In this document: positions 6,670 through 43,249 of the stretch, one piece after another
Numbering within the stretch: the stretch's first letter is position 1
How the letters are laid out: every line of letters starts with the position of its first letter
Source: Actinomycetales bacterium
GTDB taxonomy: Bacteria; Actinomycetota; Actinomycetes; Actinomycetales; Cellulomonadaceae
Assembly: GCA_012514545.1 (NCBI GenBank)
Contig: JAAZAC010000015.1
Coordinates: 1 to 43,249 of the forward strand
Direction of reading: 5' to 3'
DNA: 43,249 nt
Notes under the pieces: generated by a model
What the model was told of the DNA's origin: nothing
Database searches by the model: none
Seen by the model: the letters and a program-made list of their open reading frames with translations, nothing else
Position numbers and translations under genes: made by a program

Positions 6670-8096
6670 CGCTCGGCGCACCCCGTCGCGGGGGTGCCGG
6701 ACAGGCGGCCGTCCGCCCGCCGGATCGACACCTCGATGCACACGTCGCCCGCGCCCGCGGGGACCCGCACCCGCGGCTCCTCGACGAGCTCGCTGGGCGA
6801 CGCGCCCCCGACCTCCAGCCGCGTCCACACGTAGGCGTCCCCGGGCAGCGGGTCGGGGTTCTGCCACGCGAACTCCGCCTCGTCGCCGATGACGACGCCG
6901 CGCAGGTCCGTCGGCGCCGGCACGGCCCGGACCACGGTCGGGGCGGTGGCGGGCGCCGTCGGGCCGGGCTCCGCCGGGGGCGGCGTGAGGGCGAGCGCGA
7001 GCGCGAACGCGGCGGCGCCGAGCACGACGATGCCGCCGAGGGCCGCGCCGATCCCCCGCCGGGGCGCGGGAGCCTCCTCGACCAGGGCGCCCACGGCGTC
7101 GGCCTGCTCGTGCCACGCCCGCGGGACGCCGTCGGGGGCGACGTCGGCCGGCGCGTCGCCGGGGACGCTCGCCACGGGCCGCAGCCGGGTCGCCTGCCCG
7201 GGCGACGTGTCGACGGGGGCCGCGGGCGCGGGCGCCTCGCGCAGCTCCAGCGGCGTCGGCGGCAGGCTCAGCTCGGCCTCGACCCGCTGCAGCGCCCGGC
7301 CCAGCGCGACCGCCGAGCCGAACCGCCGCGCCGGGTCGCGGTCCATGCCCCGCGCGAGGACGGCCTCGAGCGACGCCGGCACGTCCGGGCGGCCGATCGG
7401 CGGCAGCGGGGCGCGCTCGATCCGGGCGACGAGGTCGGCCGCGGTGTTGGGGCCGTCGGGCAGCTCGAACGGGGACCGCCCGGCCAGCAGCGAGTACACG
7501 GTCGCGGCGAGGGAGTAGACGTCGGACCGCTCGTCCGCCCGCGGCTCCTCGGCGAGCAGCTCGGGCGGTGACCACGGGATCGACATGCCGAGGGCGATGC
7601 CCGCGGTCGTGGCGGCGATGCCGAAGTCCGTGAGCGCGGGCCAGCCGAAGTCCGTGACCAGCACGTTGGCGGGCTTGATGTCGCGGTGCAGCACGCCCGC
7701 CCGGTGCGCCGTCTCCACGGCGGACGCGAGCCGCACGCCGATCCGCAGCACCTCGGCCACGCTCATCCGCTCGGTGCGGTAGCGCTGGCCGAGCCCCGGC
7801 CGCGAGCAGTACTCCATGACGAGGTACGGCCGCCCGTCCGGGGCGACGTCCGCGCCGAGGACCGTGACGATCGACGGGTGGTGGGACAGCGAGGCCATGA
7901 CGTCCGCCTCGGCCCGGAACGCCGCGCGCACCTCCGGCCCGAGCGAGCTCGCGAGCAGCACCTTGACGGCGACCAGGCGCCGCGGCATCTCCTGCTCGTA
8001 GCAGAAGACGTCCGCGAACCCGCCCATGCCGAGGAGCCGGACCGGGCGCAGCCCGGGGATGGCCGGCGGGGTGGACGGCTCGCGCTTGCTGCTCAC
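6666..8096 (-). CDS. Membrane-anchored Hanks-type Ser/Thr protein kinase
   Basis: LGMGGFADV, VAVKV, HRDIKPAN, LTDFG, SPPE, SDVYSLA motifs; TM segment (GIGAALGGIVVLGAAAFALALAL) and a short C-terminal extracellular domain; GTG start at 8096 overlaps the FHA gene stop. Confidence 0.93.
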   Translation of the reverse strand: MSSKREPSTPPAIPGLRPVRLLGMGGFADVFCYEQEMPRRLVAVKVLLASSLGPEVRAAFRAEADVMASLSHHPSIVTVLGADVAPDGRPYLVMEYCSRPGLGQRYRTERMSVAEVLRIGVRLASAVETAHRAGVLHRDIKPANVLVTDFGWPALTDFGIAATTAGIALGMSIPWSPPELLAEEPRADERSDVYSLAATVYSLLAGRSPFELPDGPNTAADLVARIERAPLPPIGRPDVPASLEAVLARGMDRDPARRFGSAVALGRALQRVEAELSLPPTPLELREAPAPAAPVDTSPGQATRLRPVASVPGDAPADVAPDGVPRAWHEQADAVGALVEEAPAPRRGIGAALGGIVVLGAAAFALALALTPPPAEPGPTAPATAPTVVRAVPAPTDLRGVVIGDEAEFAWQNPDPLPGDAYVWTRLEVGGASPSELVEEPRVRVPAGAGDVCIEVSIRRADGRLSGTPATGCAER

Positions 8097-9241
8097 GTGC
8101 CGGTGTCCACCCGGTGCTCGACGCGGAACGTCACGCCGTCGCCGAGGTCCACGAGGTCCTCCGGCCCGACGACGGTCGGCTCGCCCGGGTGCAGGCGCTG
8201 CGGCGCGGCGCCCGGCCGGATCAGCAGCACGCCGTTCGTGGAGTGCAGGTCCGTGACGAGGACCTCGTCGCCCTCCTGGCGCACCTGCGCGTGCGTGCGC
8301 GAGATGTCCGACGTCGGGCTGGGCACCGTGACGAGCCGCGGCATCTCCGCGTTGCTCACCCGCGCGACCTGGGGCGCGCGGCCGATGAGGACCGGCCGCT
8401 CGAGCGAGACGACGGCGCCCGTGGACAGCACGAGGCGGGCCGGCGGCGTACGCGGGGTCGCGACGGCGAGCGAGGGCACGGCCGCGCCGTCGAGGTGGGG
8501 GAGCCGGCCGCGCAGCGCGACGATGTCGGAGGTCAGCACGGTCGTGCCGTCGTGGTCCTCGTCCTCCGGGGCGCCCGTGAGCACGATCGGCAGCTCCAGG
8601 CGCGTCGGCGCGCCGGCGGCCACGGACGCGGGCTCGGGGGCGGGCGCAGCGGCCGGGACCGGCGCGGCGTCGGCGACGGGCTCCGGGTCGGCGACGGGCT
8701 CCGGGTCGGCGGCGGCGACGGGCTCCCCGACGGGCTCCGCCGCAGGGGTCGGCCGCGGCGTCGGGGTCGGCGCGGCGGCCGCGGGCCGCGCCGCCCGGGC
8801 CTCCCCGCGCGCGACCAGGGCGACCCGCACGACGTCCGCCCGGACGACGCCGGACAGCACCGGCAGGTCCGCCGCGCCGCCGCCGCCCGGCACGCGCACC
8901 TCGACCCAGGACGCCCCGGGCACGACCTCCTCGACCCACGTCGCCGCGCGTCCGCCCGTGACCGTCCGCTCGCCGTCCGCGCCCCCGACGACGACCGCGG
9001 CGTCGCCCCGCACGATGGCCCGCACGGAGCCGCCCGCCACGGAGGCGAGCGCGAACGGCGGCATCGCGGCCAGGCCGCCCGCGAGCAGCGGCTGGAGCTG
9101 GGCGGTCGTGTCGCCGCCCTCCCGCAGCGCGCGCCAGACCGCCTCGACGACGGAGCCCGGCGTCGTCGGCTCGAGCAGGGCCACGGTGCCGTCGGTGACG
9201 ACGGCGTACCACCGGCCGGTCGCGTACCGCGGGACGATCAC
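8093..9241 (-). CDS. FHA-domain protein
   Basis: C-terminal FHA motifs LIGR, ISRTHA, DLHSTNG; Pro/Ala/Glu-rich linker; GTG start at 9241 overlaps the phosphatase stop. Confidence 0.9.
   Translation of the reverse strand: MIVPRYATGRWYAVVTDGTVALLEPTTPGSVVEAVWRALREGGDTTAQLQPLLAGGLAAMPPFALASVAGGSVRAIVRGDAAVVVGGADGERTVTGGRAATWVEEVVPGASWVEVRVPGGGGAADLPVLSGVVRADVVRVALVARGEARAARPAAAAPTPTPRPTPAAEPVGEPVAAADPEPVADPEPVADAAPVPAAAPAPEPASVAAGAPTRLELPIVLTGAPEDEDHDGTTVLTSDIVALRGRLPHLDGAAVPSLAVATPRTPPARLVLSTGAVVSLERPVLIGRAPQVARVSNAEMPRLVTVPSPTSDISRTHAQVRQEGDEVLVTDLHSTNGVLLIRPGAAPQRLHPGEPTVVGPEDLVDLGDGVTFRVEHRVDTGT
8669..8710. repeat. 18-bp coding tandem repeat (DPEPVA x2) in the FHA protein linker
   Basis: gtcggcgacgggctccgg occurs twice plus a partial copy; related EPV units follow. 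Confidence 0.7.
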
Positions 9242-10071
9242 GACGAGCCCTCCGTCCCGGGAGACTGCGCGAACCGCGGGACCGTGGCGCCCCAGATCTC
9301 CTCCTGCTCCGCCGCGCGGGCGGACCGGCCGGTCGGGTCGTCGACCCCGGGCCGGGACGACGCGGTCGCGACGTCGACGACGACCGCGCTCACGTTGTCG
9401 CGCCCGCCGGCGGCCACGGCCTCGGCGACGAGCCGCTCGGCGGCCTCCTGCGGGTCGGCGATCCCGGTCAGCACCTCGCGGATCCGCGCGTCCGACAGCT
9501 CGATCGTCAGGCCGTCGGTGCAGACGAGGAGCCGGTCGGCCGGCCCGGCGGGGATGAGCCAGTAGTCCGGCGACGGCTCGGCGTGCGTCGCGATCGCGCG
9601 CGTGACGACGTGCCGCTCCGGGTGCGCGCTCGCCTCCGCCGGGTCGAGCTCGCCGCGGTCGATGAGCTCCTGCACCACGGAGTGGTCGACGCTGATCTGC
9701 TCGAGCCGCCCGCCCGCGAGCCGGTACACCCGCGAGTCCCCGATGTTGAAGACCAGCCAGTACTCCGCGCCGTCGTACGCGGCCACGCCCACGCCCGCCA
9801 CCGTCGTGCCCGCGGTGCGGCCCGCGTCGACGACGGTGCGCAGGCGGCGCGCGGTGCGCCGGAAGCAGGCGTGGATCTCGTCCGGGTCCGCGCTCGGGCG
9901 GCCCGCGAGCTGCGCGAACTCCTCCACGGCGAGGCGGCTCGCGACGTCGCCCGCGGCGTGCCCGCCCATGCCGTCCGCGACGAGGAAGACGGGCGGGTAC
10001 GCGAGGAGGGCGTCCTCGTTGATCCGGCGCACGAGACCGCGGTCCGTGGCCGACCCCCATGACGTGCGCAC
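9238..10071 (-). CDS. PP2C/PPM-family Ser/Thr phosphatase (PrpC/PstP-like)
   Basis: TDRGLVRRINED, VADGMGGHAAG, NIGDSRVY, DHS, CTDGL, GGRDN motifs; GTG at 10071 preceded by a GAGGAG RBS. Confidence 0.93.
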   Translation of the reverse strand: MRTSWGSATDRGLVRRINEDALLAYPPVFLVADGMGGHAAGDVASRLAVEEFAQLAGRPSADPDEIHACFRRTARRLRTVVDAGRTAGTTVAGVGVAAYDGAEYWLVFNIGDSRVYRLAGGRLEQISVDHSVVQELIDRGELDPAEASAHPERHVVTRAIATHAEPSPDYWLIPAGPADRLLVCTDGLTIELSDARIREVLTGIADPQEAAERLVAEAVAAGGRDNVSAVVVDVATASSRPGVDDPTGRSARAAEQEEIWGATVPRFAQSPGTEGSS

Positions 10072-10143
10072 GCCCCGCTCCTCACTCCCCCCGACGGGCA
10101 GCCCGTGCTCCCCGAGCACCGGCGCCCGGCGTACCGTCATCGA

Positions 10144-10149
10144 AGGGTA
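10144..10149 (-). promoter_or_regulatory. Candidate -10 element (TACCCT) for the phosphatase-to-moxR operon
   Basis: TANNNT hexamer in the short intergenic region about 70 nt upstream of the phosphatase start. Confidence 0.45.
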
Positions 10150-10212
10150 GCGAGCCCGGACGACGGTCACGCCCGCCGCACGGGGTGAATGCCGCGGCGC
10201 CCACCCCGCTCC

Positions 10213-11217
10213 TCACGCCCGGCGGTCCACCAGGGCGGTCGTGAAGTCCTCGAGCGCCGACCTGACCGGGCCCGCCGGCAGCGGCGCGAGCGCGGCGACC
10301 GCGCGCCGGCCCCACGCCCGCGCCTCGGCCCGCGTGGCGGCCACGACGTCGTGGCTGCGCAGCGCCGCCACGGCGCGCGCGAGCGGCTCGTCCAGGCTCA
10401 GGTCGGAGTCCAGCAGGGCGACGAGGTCGGCGTCGGCGGCCGTGCCCTCGCCCGCCGCGACCCGGCGGCGCAGCAGCAGCGCGGGCATCGTGGGCACCCG
10501 CTCCCGCAGGTCCGTGCCCGGCGTCTTGCCGGTCACCGCGCCGTCGGACGTGAGGTCGATGACGTCGTCGGCGAGCTGGAAGGCGACGCCCGCCGCCTCG
10601 CCGTACGCGACGAGGGCGGCCTCCACCTCGGGCGGGCAGCCCGCGAACATCGCGCCGAACCGGGCCGACGTCGCCAGCAGGGACGCGGTCTTGTCCCGCA
10701 GCACCTGCAGGTAGTGCTCGACGGCGTCGACGCCCTCGCCCGGCCCCACCGTCTCGTGGAGCTGCCCGATGCACAGGCGCTCGAAGGTCTCGGCGAGGAT
10801 CCGGATGGCCACCGGGCCCAGCCCCGCGGCGATCGCCGAGGCCCGCGCGAAGACCAGGTCCCCCGTGATGACCGCGACCTGGTTGCCCCACAGCTCGTGC
10901 GCCGACGGCGCGCCCCGGCGCACGGGCGCCGCGTCCATGACGTCGTCGTGGTAGAGCGTGGCCAGGTGGGTCAGCTCGACGACGACGGCCGCGTCCACGA
11001 CCTGGGGCCGGTCCGGGTCGCCGAGGTGCGAGGTGAGCAGCGTCAGCAGCGGGCGCAGCCGCTTGCCGCCGGCGTCCACGAGGTGCCGCGCCGTCGCGCC
11101 CGCGATCGCGTCCGAGTGCGCGACGGCCGCCCGCAGGCGCTCCTCGACCACCGCCATGCGGGCGGTGAGGGCCTCGGTGAGCGCCGGGTCGGCCGCCGGC
11201 AGCGGGGTCGCGGTCAC
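10213..11217 (-). CDS. Polyprenyl diphosphate synthase (menaquinone side chain; HepT/GrcC-like)
   Basis: GGKRLRP, first Asp-rich motif HDDVMD, RRG, KTA, FQLADDVID, GK..G.DL; start overlaps the nuoN stop. Confidence 0.93.
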   Translation of the reverse strand: MTATPLPAADPALTEALTARMAVVEERLRAAVAHSDAIAGATARHLVDAGGKRLRPLLTLLTSHLGDPDRPQVVDAAVVVELTHLATLYHDDVMDAAPVRRGAPSAHELWGNQVAVITGDLVFARASAIAAGLGPVAIRILAETFERLCIGQLHETVGPGEGVDAVEHYLQVLRDKTASLLATSARFGAMFAGCPPEVEAALVAYGEAAGVAFQLADDVIDLTSDGAVTGKTPGTDLRERVPTMPALLLRRRVAAGEGTAADADLVALLDSDLSLDEPLARAVAALRSHDVVAATRAEARAWGRRAVAALAPLPAGPVRSALEDFTTALVDRRA

Positions 11218-12791
11218 GGCAGGAATCGCGCCGCCTCACCGAGGAACGAGAGCACCGGCGACGGCAGCACGCCGAGGAGCAGCGTCCCCGCCGCGGCCGC
11301 GCCGATCGCCACGATCGTGAAGCCCTCCCCGGCGACGACGGTCGTCGACTCCCCCGGCGTCCCGGCCGGGTCGGTGAAGAACATCAGCACGACGAGCCGG
11401 ACGTAGAAGAACACCGCGGCCGCCGAGGCCAGCACGCCGATGACGGCGAGCCAGACGAGGTCGCCCTCCACCGCCGCCGCGAAGACCGCGAACTTCCCGG
11501 TGAAGCCCGCGGTGAGCGGGATGCCCGCGAACGACAGCAGGAACAGCGTGAACGCGCCCGCGAGCAGCGGGTGCCGTCGGCCCAGGCCGGCCCACTGGGA
11601 CAGGTGCGTCGCCTCCGCCACCACCGCGCCGCCCGGGCCCGCGTTGACCTCGCGCACGAGCGTCACCACCGCGAACGCGCCGATCGTGGCCAGGCCGTAC
11701 GCGAGGAGGTAGAAGAGCACCGACGAGATGCCGCTCGCCGTCAGCGCGACGACGCCGACGAGGATGAAGCCCGCGTGCGCGATCGACGAGTACGCGAGCA
11801 TCCGCTTGACGTCCGTCTGCACGATCGCGACCACGGTGCCCAGCAGCATCGTCACGACGGCGACGGCCCAGAGGACCGGCATGAGGTCCCACTCGAGCGG
11901 CGGCAGCACCACGTAGACGATGCGGAGCATCGCGCCGAAGGCCGCGATCTTCGTGCACGCCGCCATGAAGCCGGTCACGGGGGTCGGCGCGCCCTGGTAG
12001 GCGTCCGGCGTCCACGCGTGGAACGGCACGGCGCCGACCTTGAAGAGCAGGCCCACGAGCACGAGCACGAGGCCCGCGAGCAGGAGCGGGTCGAGGTCGC
12101 TGGGCAGGCCGACCGCGGCGGCGACGTCCGTGAGGCGCGTCGAGCCCGCGAAGCCGTACAGCAGCGCCGAGCCGAACAGGAAGAACGCCGAGGCGTAGGC
12201 GCCGAGGAGGAAGTACTTCATCGACGCCTCCTGGCTGAGGAGGCGCCGGCGCCGGGCCATGCCGACGAGCAGGTACAGCGGCAGCGAGAGCACCTCGAGC
12301 GCCACGAACAGCGTGAGGAGGTCGCCGGCCGCGGGGAAGAGCATCATCCCGCCGAGCGAGAAGAGCGCGAGCGGGAAGACCTCGGTCTGCGCGAGGGTCC
12401 GGCGGCGCGCCTCGTTCTCGTAGTCCGAGCCGGGGACCGCCGACGCCGTGGGCGCGAACGCGTCCTCGCCGCTCTCCGTGCGGTCCGCGATGACGAGCAG
12501 GGCGACCAGGCCGAGCAGCGCGACCGTGCCCTGCACGACGAGCGCCGGCCCGTCCACGAGGAGCGTGCCGCCGAGGACGACGGTCCCGCCGTCGGCCGAC
12601 ACGTCGCCCCACAGGGCGGCGACCGCGACGAGCGCGCCGGCCGTCGCCAGCAGGGCCAGCGTCACCTGCACGGTGCGCCGCACGCGCCGCGGCACGAACG
12701 CCTCGGCGAGCACGCCGACCACGCCCGTGCCGAGCACGATGGCGACGGGCGCGAGGGACGCCCAGGGGATGTCGGGGGCCTGGAAGGTCAC
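11214..12791 (-). CDS. nuoN: NADH-quinone oxidoreductase subunit N
   Basis: EASMKYF, FKVGAVPFHAWTPDAYQGAP, KRMLAYSSIAHAG; operon position. Confidence 0.96.
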   Translation of the reverse strand: MTFQAPDIPWASLAPVAIVLGTGVVGVLAEAFVPRRVRRTVQVTLALLATAGALVAVAALWGDVSADGGTVVLGGTLLVDGPALVVQGTVALLGLVALLVIADRTESGEDAFAPTASAVPGSDYENEARRRTLAQTEVFPLALFSLGGMMLFPAAGDLLTLFVALEVLSLPLYLLVGMARRRRLLSQEASMKYFLLGAYASAFFLFGSALLYGFAGSTRLTDVAAAVGLPSDLDPLLLAGLVLVLVGLLFKVGAVPFHAWTPDAYQGAPTPVTGFMAACTKIAAFGAMLRIVYVVLPPLEWDLMPVLWAVAVVTMLLGTVVAIVQTDVKRMLAYSSIAHAGFILVGVVALTASGISSVLFYLLAYGLATIGAFAVVTLVREVNAGPGGAVVAEATHLSQWAGLGRRHPLLAGAFTLFLLSFAGIPLTAGFTGKFAVFAAAVEGDLVWLAVIGVLASAAAVFFYVRLVVLMFFTDPAGTPGESTTVVAGEGFTIVAIGAAAAGTLLLGVLPSPVLSFLGEAARFLP

Positions 12792-14362
12792 TGGTCGCTC
12801 CCGTCATCGATCCGGTCTGCGGACGCTCCGGCGCCGGCGACCACCGGGTCGGCCGACGCGTCGGGGACGCCCACCGCCTCCTGCACCACCGCCGCCGGCT
12901 CGCGCACGAGGTCGAGGGCCGGCGTCGGCCAGAGGCCCAGCAGCACGATCGCCGCGACGAGCGGCCCGACCGCCCAGCGCTCGCGCGCCGAGAGGTCCGG
13001 CTGCTCCGCGAGGCCCTCGCGGAGGCGGCCGGTGAAGATCCGCTGGTAGGTCAGCAGCACGTAGAGCGCGGCGAGGACCACGCCGAGCGTCGCGACGACG
13101 GCGGCCGCCCGGCTCGCGGCGAACGTGCCGACGAACACCATGAGCTCGCTGACGAACGGCGCCGTGCCGGGCAGCGACAGGGCCGAGAGCCCGGCCACGA
13201 GGAACGTGCCCGCGAGCACCGGCACCGACACCCGCAGGCCGCCGAGCTCGCCGATCCGCGCCGTGCCCCACCGCCGCACGAGGAAGCCGGCGAGGAGGAA
13301 CAGCGCGCCCGTCGACAGGCCGTGCGTGAGCATGTAGAGCGATGCGCCCGTCAGACTCACCGACGTGAAGGCGAAGATGCCGAGCACGATGAAGCCGAAG
13401 TGGCTCACCGAGGTGTACGCGATGAGGCGCATGAGGTCCTCCTGGCCGATGGCCAGGAACGCGCCGTAGAGGATCGACACCACGGCCAGCGCGATGACCA
13501 CCGGCGCCGCCCACCGCGCCGCCTCGGGGAAGAGCGTCAGGCAGAGCGTCATCATCCCGAACGTGCCGACCTTGTCGAGCACGCCCACGAGGAGGACGTT
13601 CGTGCCCGCGGGCGCCTGCTCCGCGGCGTCGGGCAGCCAGGTGTGCACCGGCCACATCGGCGCCTTGATGGCGAACGCGAAGAAGAACGACACGAACAGC
13701 AGGCGGCCGGCCCAGGTGCTGTGCTCGACGCCCGCCAGGGTGTCGACGAGGAAGCCGTCCGGGCCGCCCGGGCCGGACAGCCCGAGGGCGATGACGCCGA
13801 CGAGCATGACCAGCCCGCCGACGAGCGAGTAGATGAGGAACTTCACGGCCGCGTACCGCCGCTGCGGCCCGCCGAACATCCCGATCATGAAGTAGACCGG
13901 GACGAGCATCGCCTCGAACAGCACGTAGAAGAGGAAGACGTCGCGCGCCGCGAACACGGCGACCATGAACGCCTCGAGCACCAGCACGAGGGCGACGTAC
14001 GTGCGGATCCGGCGGCCGTCGTCGTCGGCCCGGTGCTCCCGCCAGGCGGCGAGCAGCACGAGCGGCACGAGGACGACCGCGAGCAGGATCAGGGCGAGGC
14101 CCAGGCCGGTGACGCCGAGCGCGTAGCTCACGCCGAAGGCCGGGATCCACGACGCCTGCTCGGTGAGCTGCACCGCGGCCGCGTCCTCGACGCGGAACGC
14201 GGCCAGCGCGCCGGCCGCGAGCGCCACCTCGAGGAGCGAGACGCCGAGGGCGACGTGCCGCGCCCACCGCCGCGCGCCCGCGGGCAGCGCCCACACGGCG
14301 AGCGCGCCCAGGAGCGGCACGACGATCAGGGTCGTGAGCCAGGGGAAGGTCGGGTCGGTCAT
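12788..14362 (-). CDS. nuoM: NADH-quinone oxidoreductase subunit M
   Basis: Start MTDPTFPWL at 14362; FYVLFEAML, AIKAPMWPVHTWLPDA, LIAYTSVSHFG. Confidence 0.96.
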   Translation of the reverse strand: MTDPTFPWLTTLIVVPLLGALAVWALPAGARRWARHVALGVSLLEVALAAGALAAFRVEDAAAVQLTEQASWIPAFGVSYALGVTGLGLALILLAVVLVPLVLLAAWREHRADDDGRRIRTYVALVLVLEAFMVAVFAARDVFLFYVLFEAMLVPVYFMIGMFGGPQRRYAAVKFLIYSLVGGLVMLVGVIALGLSGPGGPDGFLVDTLAGVEHSTWAGRLLFVSFFFAFAIKAPMWPVHTWLPDAAEQAPAGTNVLLVGVLDKVGTFGMMTLCLTLFPEAARWAAPVVIALAVVSILYGAFLAIGQEDLMRLIAYTSVSHFGFIVLGIFAFTSVSLTGASLYMLTHGLSTGALFLLAGFLVRRWGTARIGELGGLRVSVPVLAGTFLVAGLSALSLPGTAPFVSELMVFVGTFAASRAAAVVATLGVVLAALYVLLTYQRIFTGRLREGLAEQPDLSARERWAVGPLVAAIVLLGLWPTPALDLVREPAAVVQEAVGVPDASADPVVAGAGASADRIDDGSDQ

Positions 14363-14370
14363 GGTTCCCC

Positions 14371-16365
14371 TCAGATCCGCACGGCCAGGACGACGACGAC
14401 CAGCGCCACGATGCCGACGACCATCTGCAGCGCGTAGGACCGGACGAATCCGGTCTGGAGGCGCCGGAGCAGCTCGCCGGCGCCGGCCGTGCCCCGGGCG
14501 ACCCCGGAGACGGCCCCGTCGACGACCTGCCGGTCGGCGAAGACGAGCGACCGGGTGAGGTACTGCCCCGGCCGCATGAGGACGGCCTCGGCGACGGCGT
14601 CCTGGTACAGGTCGCGCCGCGCCGCCCGCGTCAGAACCGAGCCCCGCGGCGGCACGACGGCCACCGGGGCCGCCGCGTACTGCCGCCAGGCGAGGACCAC
14701 GCCGACCGCGATGAGCAGGAACGTCGTGACCATGATCGCGACCACCGGGAGCACCGGCTCGTGGTGCTCGACGTGCCCCGTCACGGGCTCGAGCCACGTC
14801 GTGAACGCCCCGCGGATCGCGAGCGCGCCGCCGAGGGCCGCCGAGCCGACGGCGAGCACGATCATCGGCCACGTCATGAGCGCCGGGGACTCGTGCGGGT
14901 GGTCGACGCGCCCCGTGGGCTCGCCGCCCGGCACGACGCCGGTCCCGTCGTCCCAGCGCCGCGTGCCGTGGAACGTCATGAAGAACAGCCGGGACATGTA
15001 GAACGCCGTGATCCCGACGCCGACGAGCGCCACGGTGCCGAAGACCCACGGCTCCCAGGTGCCCGCCACCGCGAACGCCGACTCGACGATCCGGTCCTTG
15101 CTCCAGAACCCCGAGAACGGCGGCACGCCGATGATCGCGAGCCAGCCGAGCGCCATCGTCACCCACGTGACGCGCATGTACCTCGCGAGGGCGCCGAACC
15201 GCCGCATGTCCACCTCGTCGCCCATGCCGTGCATGACCGAGCCCGCGCCGAGGAACAGCCCGGCCTTGAAGAAGCCGTGCGTGAGCAGGTGGAAGATCGC
15301 GAACGCGTAGCCGATCGGGCCGAGGCCCGCGGCGAGCATCATGTAGCCGATCTGCGACATCGTGGAGGCGGCGAGCACCTTCTTGATGTCGTCCTTCGCG
15401 CAGCCGACGACCGCCCCGAAGAGCAGCGTGATCGCGCCGACGACGGCGACCACGAGGAGCGCGGTCGGCGCCGCCTCGTAGACCGGGCCGGAGCGGACGA
15501 CGAGGTAGACGCCCGCGGTGACCATGGTGGCCGCGTGGATGAGGGCGGAGACCGGCGTCGGGCCCGCCATGGCGTCGCCCAGCCAGGACTGCAGCGGGAA
15601 CTGCGCCGACTTGCCGCACGCGGCGAGCAGCAGCATGAGCCCGATGAGCGTCGCCCAGCCCTCGCCCGCGGCGCCGACCGCCTCGTGCACGACTCCGACG
15701 TCCGTGCTCCCGGCGACGGCGACCATCGCCATGATCGCGACGATGAGGCCGATGTCGCCGACGCGGTTGACGACGAACGCCTTCTTCGCCGCGACGGCGT
15801 TCGGCCGCTCGTGGTCCCAGAACCCGATGAGCAGGTACGAGGCGAGGCCCACGCCCTCCCAGCCGACGAAGAGCAGCACGTAGGAGTCGGCGAGGACCAG
15901 CAGCAGCATCGCCGCGACGAACAGGTTGAGGTAGGCGAAGAACCGGCGCCGGTGCGGGTCGTGGGCCATGTACGCGATGGAGTACACGTGGATGAGCGAG
16001 CCCACGAACGTGACCAGCAGCACGAACGTCATCGACAGCGGGTCGACGCGCATGCCGAGGTCGACGCTGAACGCGCCGCCGGGCAGCCAGGTCCCGAGCT
16101 CCAGCTCGCGCACGCGGTCCGAGGACCCGAGCAGCGCCACCCACATCGCCACGGCCACGACGAGCGCGGCGACCGGCGTCGCGGTGCCGAGCAGGTGGCC
16201 CCACCGGTCGGCGCGGCGGCCGGTGAGCAGCAGGACCGCGGCCCCGGCCAGCGGCAGCGCCACGAGCAGCCACGCCAGGCCGAGGGCGCCGTCGGCCGGC
16301 GCGACGGCCGACGCCGGGCCCGCCGCGGTCAGCACGGCGGGCAGGCCGCCGAGTGCAGTCGTCAT
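14371..16365 (-). CDS. nuoL: NADH-quinone oxidoreductase subunit L
   Basis: [47 protein letters not shown]; alternative GTG start at 16368. Confidence 0.96.
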
Positions 16366-16375
16366 CACCCGCTCC

Positions 16376-16675
16376 TCAGCTCTTCAACAGGTTGACGTCG
16401 TCGACCGAGGCCGAGCGGCGGGTGCGGTAGATCGCCACGATGATCGCCAGCCCGACGACCACCTCGGCGGCCGCGACGACCATGACGAAGAACGCCACCA
16501 CCTGGCCCGTGAGGTCGCCGTGCATCCGCGCGAACGTCACGAACGCCAGGTTGGCCGCGTTGAGCATGAGCTCGACGCCCATGAAGACGACGATCGCGTT
16601 GCGCCGGACGAGCACGGTCAGCGCGCCGATCGTGAACAGGATCGTGGCGAGCACGAGGTAGTTCGTGAGGTTCAC
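16376..16675 (-). CDS. nuoK: NADH-quinone oxidoreductase subunit K
   Basis: [32 protein letters not shown]. Confidence 0.96.
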
Positions 16676-17529
16676 CGCACCTGCTCCTCACCCGTGATCG
16701 CGCGCTCCGGCGGCGTCGAGCCGACCGCCTCCGGGCCCAGGTGGGCGTGCACCTCGCCGACCGAGCGCTCCTGGCCCCGGACGCGCAGCACGCGGGGCAC
16801 CGAGTGCTCGAGCGGGCGGCCGCCCGGCCCGAGGGCCGCGACGTCCATCGCGTTGCTGCGCGCGTACACGCCGGGCGCCGGCAGCGGCGTGAGCGTCTCG
16901 CCGGCGGCGACCCGCGCGTCGGCCCGCTCGCGCTGACGCACCCGACGGACCAGCCGCTCGCGGTGGGTGAGCACGATGGCGCCCACCGCGGCCGTGACGA
17001 GCAGGATGCCGACGACCTCGAGCGTCACCACGAAGTCGCCGAACACGATCCGCGCGACGCCGACGGGGTTGCCGTCCGCGTTCGCCGCCGCGAGGCCGCT
17101 GGGCGCGAGGTCGGCGGCCGTGAGCACGACCGACACGAGGACCGCGCCCAGGCCGACGCCGAGCACCGCGGAGATCCAGCGGTGGGCGCCGAGGGCGTCG
17201 GTGAACGTGTCCGCCGCGTCGACGCCGACGAGCATGAGCACGAAGAGGAACAGCATCATGACCGCGCCCGTGTACACGATCACCTGCACGACGCCGAGGA
17301 ACGGCGCCTCCTGCGCGACGTAGAGCACCGCGAGGCAGATCATCACGAGCACGACGCTCATGGCCGCGTACACGGTCCGCCGGGCGAAGACGAGCCCGAG
17401 CGCCGCGATGACCATGACGGGCGCGAGGCACCAGAAGAGGACCTCCTCGCCGGTGCTCGTGCGCCCGGTCTCGGCCAGGCTCGTGAGGACCGGGAGCGCT
17501 GCGCCCGCCGAGGCGAGCAACGTCGTCAT
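16672..17529 (-). CDS. nuoJ: NADH-quinone oxidoreductase subunit J
   Basis: [26 protein letters not shown]; ATG 17529 overlaps the nuoI stop. Confidence 0.95.
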
Positions 17530-18233
17530 CGGGCCCTTCCCTTCTCGGCCGGGGCGCCCTCGCGCGCGCGGAGCGCCTCGAGCGACGGGTCGTCGGGCCG
17601 GTGCTGCGCGACCCACTCGATCTGCTCCGGCACCGGGCCGGTCACCGCGCCACGGTAGTAGTCGTCGTCCTCGGTGCCCGGCACCATCGGGTGCGGCGCG
17701 GCCAGCATCCCCTCGCCGAGTGGCGCGAGCAGGTCCTGCTTCTCGTAGATCATCCCGCGGCGCGTGGGACCGGCGAGCTCGTACTCGTTGGTCATCGTCA
17801 GCGCGCGCGTCGGGCACGCCTCGATGCACAGGCCGCAGAAGATGCAGCGCAGGTAGTTGATCTGGTAGACGCGGCCGTACCGCTCGCCCGGCGAGTACTG
17901 CGCCTCAGGGGTGTTGTCCGCGCCCTCGACGTAGATGGCGTCCGCCGGGCACGCCCACGCGCACAGCTCGCAGCCGATGCACTTCTCGAGGCCGTCCGGG
18001 TGCCGGTTGAGCTGGTGCCGGCCGTGGTAGCGCGGCTTCGGCGGCACCTTCTCGAACGGGTACTGCTCGGTGACCGTCGGCTTGAAGAACGACGAGATCG
18101 TGACGCCGAAGCCCGCGACGGGGTCGAGCGCCCGGGCGAGGCCCTTCTTCTGCGGGATGAGCGGGGTGTAGCCCGGCTGCCCGGGCGCCCCGACCTCCCC
18201 GGGCGTGCGCCGGGTGATGTCCTTGTCAGCCAC
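17526..18233 (-). CDS. nuoI: NADH-quinone oxidoreductase subunit I
   Basis: Two 4Fe-4S motifs [12 protein letters not shown] and [12 protein letters not shown]. Confidence 0.96.
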
Positions 18234-19596
18234 GCGGCTCCTCCTCAGCGGTGGTCACGGGCCCCTGCTCGATCGCACCCGCGGGGGCGTCGTCGGCGGG
18301 CGACGTCGGCGCGCGGCGGCGCCGCGGCGAGGGCGGCAGAGTCTGGCCGGGCAGCGGCGGGACGGGGTAGCCGCCCGCGAACGGGTCGAACGGCCCCTCG
18401 TCCTTCGCGGGCTCGGGCTCCGCCTTCGGCTGCTCCGGGATGACGAACATCGCCACCGTGGCCACGGCCGCGACGCCGGCGAGGATCCACAGCAGCGTCC
18501 GCAGCTCGACGTCGGTGAACTGCCGCACGCCCTGCACGACCGCCACGGCGACCACCCAGCCGAGCCCGACCGGGATGAGCACCTTCCAGCCGAACCGCAT
18601 GAACTGGTCGTAGCGGAACCGGACGAGCGTGCCCCGCACCCACACGAAGAAGAACATGAGGGCCCAGAGCTTGACGAGGAACCACAGCACCGGCCACCAG
18701 CCCGTGTTGAGCATCCCGTCCCCGATCGCCGAGAGCGGCCACGGGGCGCGCCACCCGCCGAGGAACAGCGTCGTCGCCACGGCCGAGACGTTGAGCATGT
18801 TGATGTACTCGGCGAGGAAGAACCACGCGAACTTCATCGACGAGTACTCGGTCATGTAGCCCGACACGAGCTCGCCCTCGGCCTCGGGCAGGTCGAACGG
18901 CAGCCGGTTCGTCTCGCCCACCATCGAGATGATGTAGAGGCAGAACGCGGGCAGCAGCGGCAGGAACCACCAGATCTCGGCCTGCGAGGCGACGATCTGC
19001 GACGTCGACATCGAGCCCGCGAGGATGAACACGCTGACGAGCGAGAGGCCCATGCCCAGCTCGTAGGAGATGACCTGCGCGGTCGAGCGCACCGCGCCGA
19101 GCAGCGGGTACGTGGACCCCGACGACCAGCCGCCGAGGACGATGCCGTACACGCCGAGCGCCGCCGCCGCGAGGATGTACAGGACCGCGACGGGGAAGTC
19201 GGTGAGCTGCAGCGGCGTCGTGACCCCGAACATGGTCACGGCCGGCCCGAACGGGATGACCGCGAACACGAGCAGCGAGCAGAACACCGAGATCATCGGC
19301 GCCAGGACGTAGACGAGCCGGTGCGCCGTGCTCACCATGACGTCCTCCTTGAAGAGGAGCTTCATGGCGTCGGCCATCGACTGGAAGATGCCGAACGGGC
19401 CGTGCACGTTCGGGCCGGGCCGGATCTGCATCCGGCCCACGACCTTGCGCTCGAACCAGATCGCGAAGAGCACGCTGAGCAGCAGGAACACGATGATGCC
19501 GACCGCCTTGACCAGCACGATCCACCACGTGTCCTGCGAGAAGTCGGCGGCGGCGACCGCGCCCTGGCCCTCGGCCGCCGCGAGCAGCACGCGCAT
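18226..19596 (-). CDS. nuoH: NADH-quinone oxidoreductase subunit H
   Basis: [45 protein letters not shown]; alternative GTG at 19599. Confidence 0.96.
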
Positions 19597-22304
19597 CACA
19601 GCCCCTCTCCCTCGGCCGCCGGGGACCCGGTCGCCGGCAGGGCCGCGGCGCGCACGGTCACGAGCGCGCCGGCGTCGGCCCGCAGCGTGGCCCGCACGGC
19701 CGAGCCGGTCGAGTTCGTCGGCACCCACACCACGCCGTCGGGCATCGGCGTGACGACGAGCGGCAGGGTGATCGCGCCGCCGTCGCCGTCCGCGCGCCGC
19801 ACGGTCACGGCGTCGCCCGTGCGCACGCCCAGCCGCGCGGCGAACGCCTCGCCGAGCCGGGCGACGGGCCGCTGGGCGGTCCCGGCGAGGAACTGCTCGC
19901 CGTCCTGCAGGCGGCCCCGGTCGAGCAGCAGGTGCCACGTCGCGAGCACCGCCTCGCCCTCGCCGACCGCCGGCGGCTCCGCGGCGGGCACGTCGGGCGC
20001 CGCGGGGCGCTCGCCGTCCCACGCGCCGACCTGGTCGAGCTCCGCGTGCACCTGCGCGAGGGTCCGCGTGCCGAGCGTCACACCCATCCGGTCCGCGAGC
20101 GCGTCGAGCACCCGGTGGTCGGGCATGTGCGTGCTCGTCAGCGCCTGCGGGAACGGGCGGAGCCGCCCCTCCCAGGACACGAACGTGCCGCCCTTCTCGA
20201 CCGGCGGCGCGACCGGCAGCACGACGTCGGCCAGCTCGGTCACCGCGGACGAGCGGACCTCGAGCGAGACGAGGAAGTCGACGCCGCGCAGCGCCGCCGA
20301 CGCGAGGGCCGGGTCCGGCAGGTCCGCGGGGTCCACGCCGCCGACGACGAGCGCCCGCAGCTCGCCCGCGGCCGCCGCCGCGAGGATGCCCGCGGCGTCG
20401 CGGCCCGGCTCGGCCGGCAGCCGCTCGACGTCCCAGGCCGCCGCGAGGTCGACGCGGGCCCGCGCGTCGGCGACGGGCCGCCCGCCCGGCAGGAGGCCCG
20501 GCAGCGTGCCGGCCTCGACGCCCGCGCGCTCGCCGACCCGGCGCGGGATCCACGCGAGCCGCGCGCCCGTGCGCCCGGCCAGGCGGAGCGCCGCGCTCAG
20601 CGCGCCCGGCACCGTGGCCAGGCGCTCGCCGACGACGACCACGGCGTCCGGCCCGAGCGCCTCGGCCGCCCGGCCGAGCGCCCCGTGCGCGCCGGGGACG
20701 AGCGCGTCGAGCACCTCGGGCTCCGTGCCCGGCGCGGCCGGCAGCAGCGTGCCGTCGAGCCGCGCGAGGCCCCGGCTCGCCCAGGGGGCCACCGAGAAGA
20801 CCCGCGTGCGGTTCTTGCGCACGGCCTTGCGCAGCCGGAGGAACACGACGCCGCCCTCGTCCTCGGGCTCGAAGCCGACGAGGAGCACCGCCGGCGCGGC
20901 CTCGAGGTCCGCGAAGGTCACGGCCATCCGCGTGCCCGCGACGTGGTGCGCGAGGAACGCCTCCTCCTCCGCGGAGTGCGGCCGCGCCCGGTGGTCGACG
21001 TCGTTCGTGCCCAGGGCCACGCGCGCGAACTTCGCGTAGGCGTAGGCGTCCTCGAGCGTGAGGCGCCCGCCGGGCAGCACGCCGACGGCGCCCGCGGCGG
21101 CCGCGAGGCCCTCGGCGGCGCGGTCGAGCGCCTCGCCCCAGCTGGCCTTGCGCAGCTCGCCCCGCGTGCCGTCCTCGGCGACGTCGCGCACGAGCGGGAC
21201 GGTGATCCGGTCGGGCAGCCCCTGCCAGGTGAACGCGAAGCGGTCCTTGTCGGTGATCCACTCCTCGTTCACGGCCGGGTCGTCGCCCGCGAGCCGCCGC
21301 AGCACGACGCCGCGCCGGTGGTCGACGCGGATGGCCGAGCAGCTCGAGTCGTGCTCCGCCACGCCCGGCGTCGACACGAGGTCGAACGGCCGGGAGCGGA
21401 ACCGGTAGGCCGCGTTCGTCAGCGCGCCCACCGGGCAGATCTGGATGGTGTTGCCCGAGAAGTACGACGCGAACGGGCGGCCCGACGTGTCGATCGTCGC
21501 CGCGCCGACCGGGCCGGCCACGTCCTGCTCCGGCACGCCCGTCGCCGCGCTGATCGGGGTCCCGTCGGGCTGCACGCCGCGGTAGACCCGCGTCGGCTCC
21601 GCGCCGGCCCAGTCCAGCACGCCCGGGTCGAAGCGCCCGATCTGCTGCGCGTGCGTCCCGTGCACCTCCCGGCCCGGCGTCCCGCCGCCGCGGCCCTGCA
21701 GCTCGATGAACGCGTCCCCGGCGATCTCCGCCGAGAACCGCGTGCAGCGCTGGCACAGGATGCACCGGTCGCGGTCGAGCAGGATCTCGGTGGAGATCGC
21801 GATCGGCTTGGGGAACGTCCGCTTGACGTCGCGGAATCGCGACGTGCCGTACCCGTTGCTCATCGCCTGGTTCTGCAGCGGGCACTCGCCACCCTTGTCG
21901 CAGGTGGGGCAGTCGAGCGGGTGGTTGACGAGCAGGAACTCGATGATCCCGTGCTGCGCCTTGTCGGCGACGGCGCTCGTGCGCTGCGTCCGCACGACCA
22001 TGCCGGGCGTGGCCTCCGTGGTGCAGGAGGCCTGCGGCTTCGGCATCGGGCGGACGTTGCCCTCCCGGTCCGGCACGGCGACCTCGACGAGGCACTGCCG
22101 GCACGCGCCCACCGGCTCGAGCAGCGGGTGGTCGCAAAAGCGCGGGATCGCGATGCCGAGCTGCTCCGCGGCGCGGATGACGAGTGTGCCCTTCGGCACC
22201 GTCACCTCGACGTCGTCGATCGTGAAGGTGACGGCGTCGGGGGGCGCGGCGGGCCGGTCCGCGCCGCCCGTCGCGTTCGTCGCGCCTGTGGACGTCGTCG
22301 TCAT
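19596..22304 (-). CDS. nuoG: NADH-quinone oxidoreductase subunit G
   Basis: [44 protein letters not shown]. Confidence 0.96.
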
Positions 22305-40958: not shown

Positions 40959-42515
40959 TCACGCGCACGCGAGCTCCAGGGTCGGCTGATCGATGCGCAC
41001 GCGTGCGGCTTCCCTCGAGCCACCTTCCCCGGACGCGCCTCCGCGCGCGAGCGCCTCGTCACCCGGCGGCCCCACGCCGCCCGGGTCTCGACTCACCCCG
41101 GGGTCCCGACCTCCACCGCCGTCCTGACCCTCTCCCACGGCACCCTCGCGCCCCGGCGGGCCCTCGCCGTCGGCGGGCAGATCCCCGATGCGGCCGACCT
41201 CGCGCCGGACCGACCGGCCGATGGGCCGGCCGTCGCGATGGCGGAAGACGAACCCGGCGTCGTCGACCGTGATGACCACGTCGCGCTGGTGGACCAGCCG
41301 GTGGTGGTGCGCGCAGAGGAGGACTCCGTTCTCCACGGACGTCCTCCCGAGGCGGCTCCACCACAGGACGTGGTGCACCTCGCAGAGGAACGGCGGCGCC
41401 GAGCACCCGGGGTACCGGCAGGTCCGGTCCCGGGCGACGACCGCGGCGCGCTGCGGCCCGGTGTAGGTCCGTTGCGCCCAGCCGACGTCGAGCGGGACGC
41501 CCTTCGGGCCGAACACGATCCGGGTGACCCGCGCGTCGCAGGCGAGCTGGGCGAGCACGGAGCCGGGGATCGGCGTGCCGTCGTCGAGCTCGGCGGGAGC
41601 TCCGAGGCGACCGTCCGTGGTCTCGAGGGCCTGCGGCAGGGGCGCGGGCACGCCGTCGGCGTCGGCACCGGCCGCCACGGCGAGGTAGGTCTCGTACGGG
41701 ACGTGGACGAGCAGGTGCGGTCGCACGAGGGACGTCCCGCCGCCGCCGAGCCCGTGGTCGAGGACCGCCCGCGCGAGGTCCGTGAGCGCCGCGGCCGCGC
41801 GCTGCTCGCCGGTCCGCGCGTCCTCGGCGGCCGGCACGCCCGCGACCGCGCGCAGGGCGGTGGCGAGCGTCTCGGCGCTGTCGTTCGCGAGGAAGCCCTG
41901 CAGGTCGACCCCGTCGCGGCGCCGGACGAGGCGGAGGTACTGCCGCTCGGTCGCGGCGCGCTGCTCGGCCTCGTGCGCGGCGGTGTCGACGGCGGCGGCC
42001 CACCGACGCACCAGCCGTCGGAAGTCGTCCACGCCGAGCCGGCGCGCCTGCGCGAGCAGGTACGCCTCGTTGCGGTCCGGCCGGTCGGAGGCCAGCGCGG
42101 CCCGGCGCGCCTCCGACGTCGCGGCGACCTCGGTCAGCACCCGCGCGTGCTCGAGGCTGATCTCGCCGCGCTCGACCGCCCGCGCGGTCGCGGACACGTC
42201 GCGCTCGAGCGCCCGGCCGAGCGCCGCCTCCCGCCGCGCCGTGCCCACCGAGGCGCCGCCCCGGCGGGCCACCCACTCCGGGAACGTCCGCGCCGCGCCC
42301 GACGCCGCCCAGCGCCCGTCCTCCTCGATCCGGGCGAGGAGGCGCGCCCGCACGACGCCGATCCGGTCGGCCGCGCGCCGCAGCGCGTCGTGCGCCGCGG
42401 TCACCTCCGCGATCTCGAGCCCGCCGACGTCGACCCCTACGAGCGCCGCGCACGCCTCCTCCAGCGCCCCGACGAGCGCACCGAGGCCCGGCGTCGCCGC
42501 CACCCCGGTCGTCAT
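40959..42515 (-). CDS. DUF222 + HNH endonuclease protein (13E12-repeat-like family)
   Basis: GEISLEHARV, RT.EQR.A.AL, LACDA, ARDRTCRYPGC, CEVHH...W, G.TSVENGVLLCAHHHRLVH. Confidence 0.9.
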   Translation of the reverse strand: MTTGVAATPGLGALVGALEEACAALVGVDVGGLEIAEVTAAHDALRRAADRIGVVRARLLARIEEDGRWAASGAARTFPEWVARRGGASVGTARREAALGRALERDVSATARAVERGEISLEHARVLTEVAATSEARRAALASDRPDRNEAYLLAQARRLGVDDFRRLVRRWAAAVDTAAHEAEQRAATERQYLRLVRRRDGVDLQGFLANDSAETLATALRAVAGVPAAEDARTGEQRAAAALTDLARAVLDHGLGGGGTSLVRPHLLVHVPYETYLAVAAGADADGVPAPLPQALETTDGRLGAPAELDDGTPIPGSVLAQLACDARVTRIVFGPKGVPLDVGWAQRTYTGPQRAAVVARDRTCRYPGCSAPPFLCEVHHVLWWSRLGRTSVENGVLLCAHHHRLVHQRDVVITVDDAGFVFRHRDGRPIGRSVRREVGRIGDLPADGEGPPGREGAVGEGQDGGGGRDPGVSRDPGGVGPPGDEALARGGASGEGGSREAARVRIDQPTLELACA

Positions 42516-42533
42516 CGTTCGCCCCCTGCGCCT

Positions 42534-42549
42534 TCGAACATGTGTTCGA
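42534..42549. promoter_or_regulatory. LexA (SOS) box TCGAAC-ATGT-GTTCGA
   Basis: Exact match to the actinobacterial consensus TCGAAC-N4-GTTCGA, 18 nt upstream of the HNH start and just downstream of a minus-strand TAGCGT -10 (42555-42560). Confidence 0.88.
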
Positions 42550-42617
42550 GCGAAACGCTACCAGGAGGCAGCGACTCGGACAACCCCTGTGCGTGCCTGG
42601 ATGACGCCGAACTGGCG

Positions 42618-42933
42618 AACTCATCCCGCACTCCCAGGAGAGGGCCTCGCCGAGTTCACGTACCACTCGTCCCCGCACGCGGCGCACGTGGGGAGCTCCC
42701 ACTTGATCGAGGTGGCGACCGGCTCATCCCCGCGCGCGGGGAGCGCACCGGGTGGGTGTACACGCCCAGCGACCCGAAGTTGGCTCATCCCCGCACGCGG
42801 GGAGCGCACAGTGCGACCTTGCGCGGGTCCTTCTCGTCCGTCGGCTCATCCCCGCACGCGGGGAGCGCACAGCACGCCGGCGCGAGCCGACGTCATCGAC
42901 CCGGGCTCATCCCCCGCACGCGGGGGATGAGCC
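42618..42933 (-). CRISPR. Type I-E-like CRISPR array, left arm (reads leftward)
   Basis: 28-bp repeats ggctcatccccgc(a/g)cgcggggagcgcac at 42721, 42782 and 42843 (61-bp period, unique 33-bp spacers); degenerate copies at 42664-42687 and 42618-42631; hybrid repeat at 42904-42933. Confidence 0.92.
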
Positions 42934-42939
42934 CCTTCT

Positions 42940-43193
42940 GGGGATGAGCCCTACTTCGGCCTGCCGGAGACGATGACCGACCTGTGCGCTCCCCGCGTGC
43001 GGGGGATGAGCCGTCACGGGCGTCGGACTTCTCGCCCTCGAGCAGGTGCGCTCCCCGCGTGCGGGGATGAGCCGGCGTTCAATCTCCCCCGGGTCCTGCT
43101 CGGCCCGTGCGCTCCCCGCGTGCCAGAGGACCGCCAGTGCGTCGCTCAGGTCCCCTGCAGGCGTGGCGCGAGCGCCCCCCGCGACCATGCGCC
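42940..43193 (+). CRISPR. Type I-E-like CRISPR array, right arm (reads rightward, inverted relative to the left arm)
   Basis: Half repeat 42940-42950; gtgcgctccccgcgtgcgggg(g)atgagcc at 42984-43012 and 43046-43073; degenerate copies at 43107-43135 and 43170-43193; 33-bp spacers. Confidence 0.9.
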
Positions 43194-43249
43194 ACACCGT
43201 AGGCCCACGAGTGATCTTGCGGGGGCGGTTCGCGAGGAATCACCCGAAC

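Follow-up and report, generated by a model that had tools for sequence, protein, structure and literature searches.

The window (the whole stretch of DNA analysed here, 43,249 nucleotides long) comes from a host genome of 2.56 Mb (321 contigs, 76% GC, 84% complete), and its final 630 bases are occupied by a type I-E-like CRISPR array. The repeat is 28-29 nt long and folds into a 7-bp stem with a 4-nt loop, which fits type I-E. Taking the copy at 43046-43073 as the 28-nt reference, copies are found in both orientations with a period of 61 nt, and no further full copy, with up to 5 mismatches, was found in the 2.56 Mb of the host genome. The array and its surroundings are made up of the following features.

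40959..42515, minus strand: DUF222-HNH gene, outside the array (Pfam PF02720, E 2.9e-25; PF13391, E 1.7e-5)
42618..42687, minus strand: trailer end, with a half repeat (42618-42631), a spacer (42632-42663) and a repeat lacking 4 nt (42664-42687)
42688..42903, minus strand: minus arm, with spacers 42688-42720, 42749-42781, 42810-42842 and 42871-42903 and repeats at 42721 (27/28 identical to the reference), 42782 (28/28) and 42843 (28/28)
42904..42933, no strand: tail-plus-tail hybrid repeat at the orientation switch, a perfect 30-nt palindrome with an extra C/G in each arm
42934..42950, plus strand: 6-nt spacer stub and repeat tail half
42951..43106, plus strand: plus arm, with spacers 42951-42983, 43013-43045 and 43074-43106 and repeats at 42984 (one extra G) and 43046
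43107..43122, plus strand: repeat head half, cut just after the hairpin loop, forming the left side of a deletion junction
43123..43188, minus strand: remnant of cas3, codons 1-22, identical to the first 22 residues of a full-length Cas3 (P0003) and including a supposed repeat at 43170
43196..43201, minus strand: candidate -10 hexamer of the TANNNT type, 7 nt before the cas3 ATG, which would read through the remnant

The two arms and their spacers

The repeat identities confirm the original prediction that one and the same 28-nt repeat runs in minus orientation to the left of the centre and in plus orientation to the right of it, both arms sharing an identical repeat and loop. The eight spacers (32-33 nt) are all different in either orientation, with a best ungapped match of 21/33 between any pair and of at most 18 in reverse complement, which bears out the claim that the arms are not an inverted duplication. 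The locus departs from the single orientation, with a leader at one end, that is expected of type I-E. At the orientation switch we found no leader (the centre has a GC content of 0.69 and no promoter-like site), as predicted; nor are leaders AT-rich in this genus, one of its type I-E loci having a leader region with a GC content of 0.67. The repeat with the extra G (42984) folds worse than the standard repeat. A scan of 42400-43249 against Rfam returned two weak matches only, far below gathering scores, and none of the genomes of 40 relatives shares the array, their matches being to the DUF222 gene.

On the left, the flank and the trailer are common to the strains in the runs examined (described below), and the predicted outward decay of the repeats holds on this side (the 4-nt loss at 42664 and the half repeat at 42618); it fails on the right, where 43107-43122 is a repeat head half joined to cas3. 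The left flank also carries a perfect palindrome (42534-42549), 19 nt upstream of the DUF222-HNH gene, which matches the actinobacterial LexA (SOS) box motif, with one match in the window against 0.02 expected.

The region is contained in 20 of the 24 sequencing runs listed, and eight runs were examined as assembled contigs rather than raw reads. In loose ends of run X13, an AAG PAM accompanies the target of spacer 42810-42842 on the minus strand and that of spacer 43013-43045 on the plus strand, that is, one spacer of each arm shows the PAM in the direction of its own arm. An AAG is missing at the target of spacer 42749-42781, which leaves AAG in two of the three spacers with visible target flanks (loose ends). 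Additionally, in X1 and X2 the targets of spacers 42810-42842 and 43013-43045 lie on one contig. The spacers of both arms were acquired normally. In the digester runs (X1, X2 and X13) the host is accompanied by an element that both arms target, and the 42810-42842 target is mismatched in the base directly following the PAM, which may be an escape change. The flanks of the 42749-42781 target (X2 and X5), read by eye, resemble a D,D-peptidase (M15-type) coding frame; one X5 contig passes from the host flank into this target and is probably an assembly chimera. Exact scans of viral contigs with four of the eight spacers gave no match, a blastn search of one spacer against phage records returned only E values of 0.3 or worse, and no full spacer match was found in the incomplete host genome, where the best reached 19/20 bases.

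The orientation switch and the junction into cas3

The repeat and its own reverse complement share 14 of their 16 central bases (two 7-bp stem arms with a 2-nt mismatch between them), and the hybrid at the centre, 42904-42933, has a predicted fold of -16.3 kcal/mol (z -6.7). The neighbouring stub and tail half (42934-42950) may record a further internal deletion, ending beside the hairpin loop. In three of the eight runs the centre is spanned gap-free by single contigs, with at least 31 letters on each side:

42843-43042: run X1
42843-43066: run X2
42843-43249: run X8

According to the original prediction, a junction that no read spanned would indicate mis-assembly through the palindromic repeat; since these contigs span the centre, the orientation switch is real. 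The three runs come from three studies, X1 and X2 possibly belonging to one campaign and one run being possibly the source of the assembly. Two kinds of record were counted neither way, namely the uncovered bins of X6, X13, X14 and X15 and an X5 record with 18 letters to the right of the centre. The spanning contig of X8 has a depth of 572.9, against 614.5 in the flank, and the X8 strain comes from another habitat and another year and differs from the window in five listed letters; the arrangement is therefore fixed in a lineage, its allele being present in a 2019 and a 2025 set of runs that represent different habitats.

The right-hand end is of another nature. The head half that closes the plus arm matches the repeat in 17/17 head bases and shares 1 nt with the sequence on the other side of its join to cas3. 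The junction 43122/43123 is spanned by X8 with long sides and by X2, X5 and X13 with 30 letters on the right. The end of the window overlaps by 127 nt another contig of the assembly, C232, and this overlap, which marks a branch of the assembly graph, starts exactly at 43123. A metagenome contig (L014) is 99.5% identical to C232 and has a different sequence before 43123: its minus strand continues as a Cas3 HD domain (TIGR01596, E 2.6e-23), of which the first 22 codons are 43188-43123 of the window. A full-length Cas3 of 991 residues (P0003) with the same first 22 residues also exists, and in its cluster three of the seven members are full-length, while a 263-residue form is found on 14 contigs. 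There are thus at least three cas3 states (22 residues, 263 residues and full length), and among the named relatives of this Cas3 the nearest belong to Cellulomonas species. Among the eight runs, the 30 letters that continue cas3 appear as a loose end at 43123 in five (X1, X2, X5, X13 and X15), X15 carrying mainly this allele, and X6 and X14 also run on differently at this position. Because these sister strains run on into Cas3 at the junction, the type I-E operon and the leader must have been deleted from the window allele. The species shows at least two independent cas3 losses beside intact alleles.

The proposal of two trailer ends consequently fails on the right, where the array stops at a deletion junction into cas3 codon 22, and the supposed decayed repeat at 43170 is the start of cas3, unchanged in the strains where the gene continues. 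Its stretch, 43166-43193, matches the repeat in 17/28 positions, a value reached by about 0.7% of the 7-offset windows elsewhere in the window; it is 5' sequence of cas3, unchanged in cas3-continuing strains, and its likeness to the repeat may be due to chance, the DNA being GC-rich, or to a relic of ancient date. A 96-codon frame (43197-42907) joins the cas3 start to the inverted arm. In the 10750-20028 stretch of L014, cas3 ends after 263 codons, a second and independent loss of the system; the genes that follow it, judged by eye to be ROK-like, LacI-like and ABC sugar-transport-like, are without a match in the host genome.

No cas1, cas6e, cas7 or further cas3 was found in the host genome, where only the 22-codon cas3 remnant is left; with a genome 84% complete, these genes are better called not found than absent. 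The cas3, Cascade, cas1 and cas2 genes required by a functional type I-E system were likewise not found in the genome at this completeness, and the suggested genome search for type I-E cas genes acting in trans returned none. The array is therefore likely to be inert, as far as an 84%-complete genome can tell. The frozen immune memory of the original prediction is probable. Its other suggestion, an unusual or bidirectional expression, finds no support; Cas6 and Cascade genes were looked for in the same 84%-complete genome and not found.

Related loci in the genus and in Halomonas sp. 707D7

A related cas3 occurs in two of the 37 other genomes of the genus (here G013 and G053), and a repeat-pattern scan matched two of the 38 genomes. 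In G013, the closest locus of the genus, whose Cas3 is 67% identical, the genes run cas3-cse1-cse2-cas7-cas5-cas6e-cas1-cas2 (cas7 and cas2 being assigned by position and sequence), followed by a leader and by a single co-directional array of 41 repeats; this layout, with the array downstream of and co-directional with cas3-cas2, matches the minus arm. In G053, with a Cas3 61% identical and repeats different in three letters, the array is convergent on the operon and its trailer adjoins cas2. Two back-to-back arrays were found in neither genome over the stretches read. The predicted ancestral adjacency (42871-42903 beside the reverse complement of 43074-43106) was not seen among the contigs listed for 8 of the 24 runs, and the contigs listed for the 8 runs contain no strand-changing joints.

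A scan of GTDB genomes for tail-tail hybrids (16 of the 64 parts of the collection, one repeat subclass) gave 122 loci, 80 of them with full flanks. Three loci have perfect hybrids, of which one, in Halomonas sp. 707D7, is a bidirectional array; of the other two, one is an isolated palindrome and was discarded, and one has its hybrid at a contig start and was not counted. The latter (a Thiocapsa MAG, NZ_DATITZ010000125.1, 1-230), in which three plus repeats and a trailer come after the tail-tail hybrid, is a possible further case. A Beijerinckiaceae genome (L108, 701-760) has two repeat halves with almost no spacer between them within an otherwise regular array. Hybrids of this type are rare: roughly a quarter of GTDB, scanned for one repeat class, yielded a single clear case, and for the 30-nt Halomonas hybrid (an imperfect query) the best 30 of 132 matching records from 5,426 E. 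coli genomes include none with full cover.

The 707D7 locus (NZ_JAMZBC010000002.1, 5832-17266) has on its left a leader, eight plus repeats, a head-head hybrid (6319), one minus repeat and a second leader, and on its right the inverted I-E operon, six minus repeats with a decayed one, a tail-tail hybrid (17068), three plus repeats and a trailer. The inverted operon block measures 9.5 kb and about 10.7 kb is inverted between the hybrids, so that both leaders would now drive the newest spacers only. Two of 40 genus relatives (G063 and G095) have a cas operon that occupies this place but runs the other way, and in G063, with 36 + 63 ordinary repeats, the distribution of the two loop sequences is exactly the one expected from un-inverting 707D7. 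No spacer is common to 707D7 and these two relatives. The exchange took place, by its traces, between two arrays over a perfect 18-bp match. Taken as assembled, 707D7 shows what reads as a complete reciprocal inversion between two CRISPR arrays, and assembly error is unlikely, because the reciprocal hybrid pair and the sorting of the loops would be hard to obtain by error.

Origin of the locus and comparison with known systems

We conclude that the window locus is the remnant of a type I-E locus in which, probably, an exchange between repeat stems flipped part of a single array, the leader and the cas operon being additionally deleted. Everything between the half repeat ending at 43122 and cas3 codon 22 is missing from this strain, whereas the sister strains continue into cas3, and the centre is the product of a crossover within the repeat core, 14 of whose 16 bases are shared by both orientations. 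Such a crossover between co-directional repeats, which is seen in 707D7 and which we infer for the window, inverts the intervening DNA and leaves one tail-tail and one head-head hybrid. Of these two scars, the window would keep the first whole and only the left half of the second; the remainder of the head-plus-head scar and the newer spacers would have gone in the deletion that took the leader and the cas operon. Inversion and deletion may have been two events or a single template-switch event, and homogenisation of the palindrome arms may account for the extra C that the hybrid carries in its left half. From then on, with leader, Cas6 and Cascade gone, the array would neither add spacers nor guide interference.

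A reciprocal inversion breakpoint would be expected to leave precisely the half repeat that closes the plus arm. This half repeat is nevertheless weaker evidence than it looks, because cuts adjacent to the loop are also found at 42631 and 42940; the hairpin loop is a general weak point in this array. If template switching homogenised the hybrid in its left half, un-inverting the block also places the repeats with the extra G at its newer end, an outcome that does not separate the rival explanations.

An inverted block of one array fits the locus better than the fusion of two divergent arrays put forward in the original prediction. For such a fusion, two divergent arrays with facing leaders would have stood downstream of cas2, a deletion through the shared repeat stem would have removed both leaders and a second deletion the right trailer together with the cas operon. 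The same tail-tail hybrid would be produced, and a plus-oriented array beside cas2 is not impossible, since the G053 array is convergent on the cas operon with its trailer adjoining cas2. However, there is no right-hand trailer, cas3 lies outside the plus arm (the cas genes were therefore not between the arms), neither G013 nor G053 has back-to-back arrays in the stretches read, and the second deletion would have had to end by chance at a hairpin centre. Taken together, these points make the fusion unlikely, while leaving it some real weight. A flip of the cas operon between two flanking arrays, of the Halomonas type, was rejected, as the cas3 start stands un-inverted beside ccsA.

A more far-reaching version of the inversion, in which type I-E repeat stems serve as built-in reversible inversion sites that switch immune memory, seems doubtful to us. 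If it were true, array blocks or a whole cas operon could flip, cutting older spacers from the leader, and could flip back; 707D7 would be a switched state with all its cas genes, and the window would hold an allele that was switched and then fixed in that state by a deletion, with transcription perhaps continuing from the former cas3 promoter.

It is improbable that the plus arm is a patch copied from the array of another strain or locus and inserted in reverse during repair of the break by which the cas operon was lost. The messy centre (extra bases, the 6-nt stub and a duplicated tail) and the presence of several alleles together in one run, with at least three cas3 states, would suit such a patch; against it, the repeats are identical in both arms, the targets of both arms lie on one element and the host genome has no second array. 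Continued use of the remnant, with transcription starting at the surviving cas3 promoter or entering on both sides and Cas proteins supplied in trans, is very improbable: the hexamer that precedes the cas3 ATG by 7 nt, which by the -10 consensus is a candidate leaderless promoter, does point into the array, and the allele occurs in the 2019 and 2025 runs from different habitats, but no cas1, cas6e, cas7 or further cas3 was found in the 84%-complete host genome, one X8 repeat has drifted at 43067 and the extra-G repeat folds worse. An assembly artefact through the palindromic repeat, which a fragmented metagenome-type assembly of 321 contigs and the position at a contig end might suggest, is largely refuted and of negligible probability, given a shared core of 16 nt against an assembly overlap of 127, the independent 31-mer contigs of three runs that cross the centre gap-free, and a contig end that is accounted for by the cas3 allele split.

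The scars in the window and in Halomonas show that the palindromic stems of CRISPR repeats allow two repeats to recombine in inverted register. Such an exchange is a rare route of array rearrangement, leaving diagnostic head-head and tail-tail hybrids, and models or tools that presume one orientation per array would mis-order or split the arrays concerned. The hybrids may also provide a sequence-level test for how CRISPR loci take part in genome inversions, and the cas3 losses beside intact alleles in one species offer a usable natural system for studying CRISPR loss. The full-text literature searched, a coverage outside which most subscription papers and supplements lie, yielded no description of head-head or tail-tail hybrid repeats, and the accessible part of the CRISPRDetect paper (PMC4869251) contains nothing on hybrid repeats.

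Compared with known systems, the window resembles a type I-E locus such as that of G013 in its 28(+1)-nt hairpin repeat, its 61-nt period, its 32-33-nt spacers and AAG PAM, and in having cas3 upstream of and co-directional with the minus arm; it differs in being without operon and leader and in its inverted block and tail-tail hybrid. With 707D7 it has in common a tail-tail hybrid at the orientation switch, different spacers on each side and no leader at the switch. On the other hand, 707D7 keeps both reciprocal hybrids and the whole cas operon, and its exchange joined two arrays over a perfect 18-bp match, whereas the exchange here would have occurred within one array over a match with two central mismatches. 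Template switching, in the accessible text of a yeast study (PMC8604942), homogenises the arms of inverted repeats and inverts the DNA between them for spacers of 2-5 bp; what corresponds is that the arms become a perfect palindrome and that the DNA between them is flipped, but those inversions of 2-5 bp in yeast genes stand against about 200 bp in the window and 10.7 kb in Halomonas. CRISPR loci were found at chromosomal inversion sites in Thermotogales (DeBoy et al. 2006, as summarised in PMC5052741), the role of the arrays being called unknown in what is accessible of that review; the likeness lies in CRISPR loci at inversion sites and the difference in the chromosomal scale. Kupczok et al. 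2015 (PMC4524480), as far as their text is accessible, describe array erosion by deletion and "order inversions", which are changes of spacer order arising mostly from duplication; there too recombination and deletion reshape arrays, though not through strand flips of repeat-spacer blocks. Seen against these systems, the window locus is real, a remnant that is probably inert, and a variant of known array recombination.
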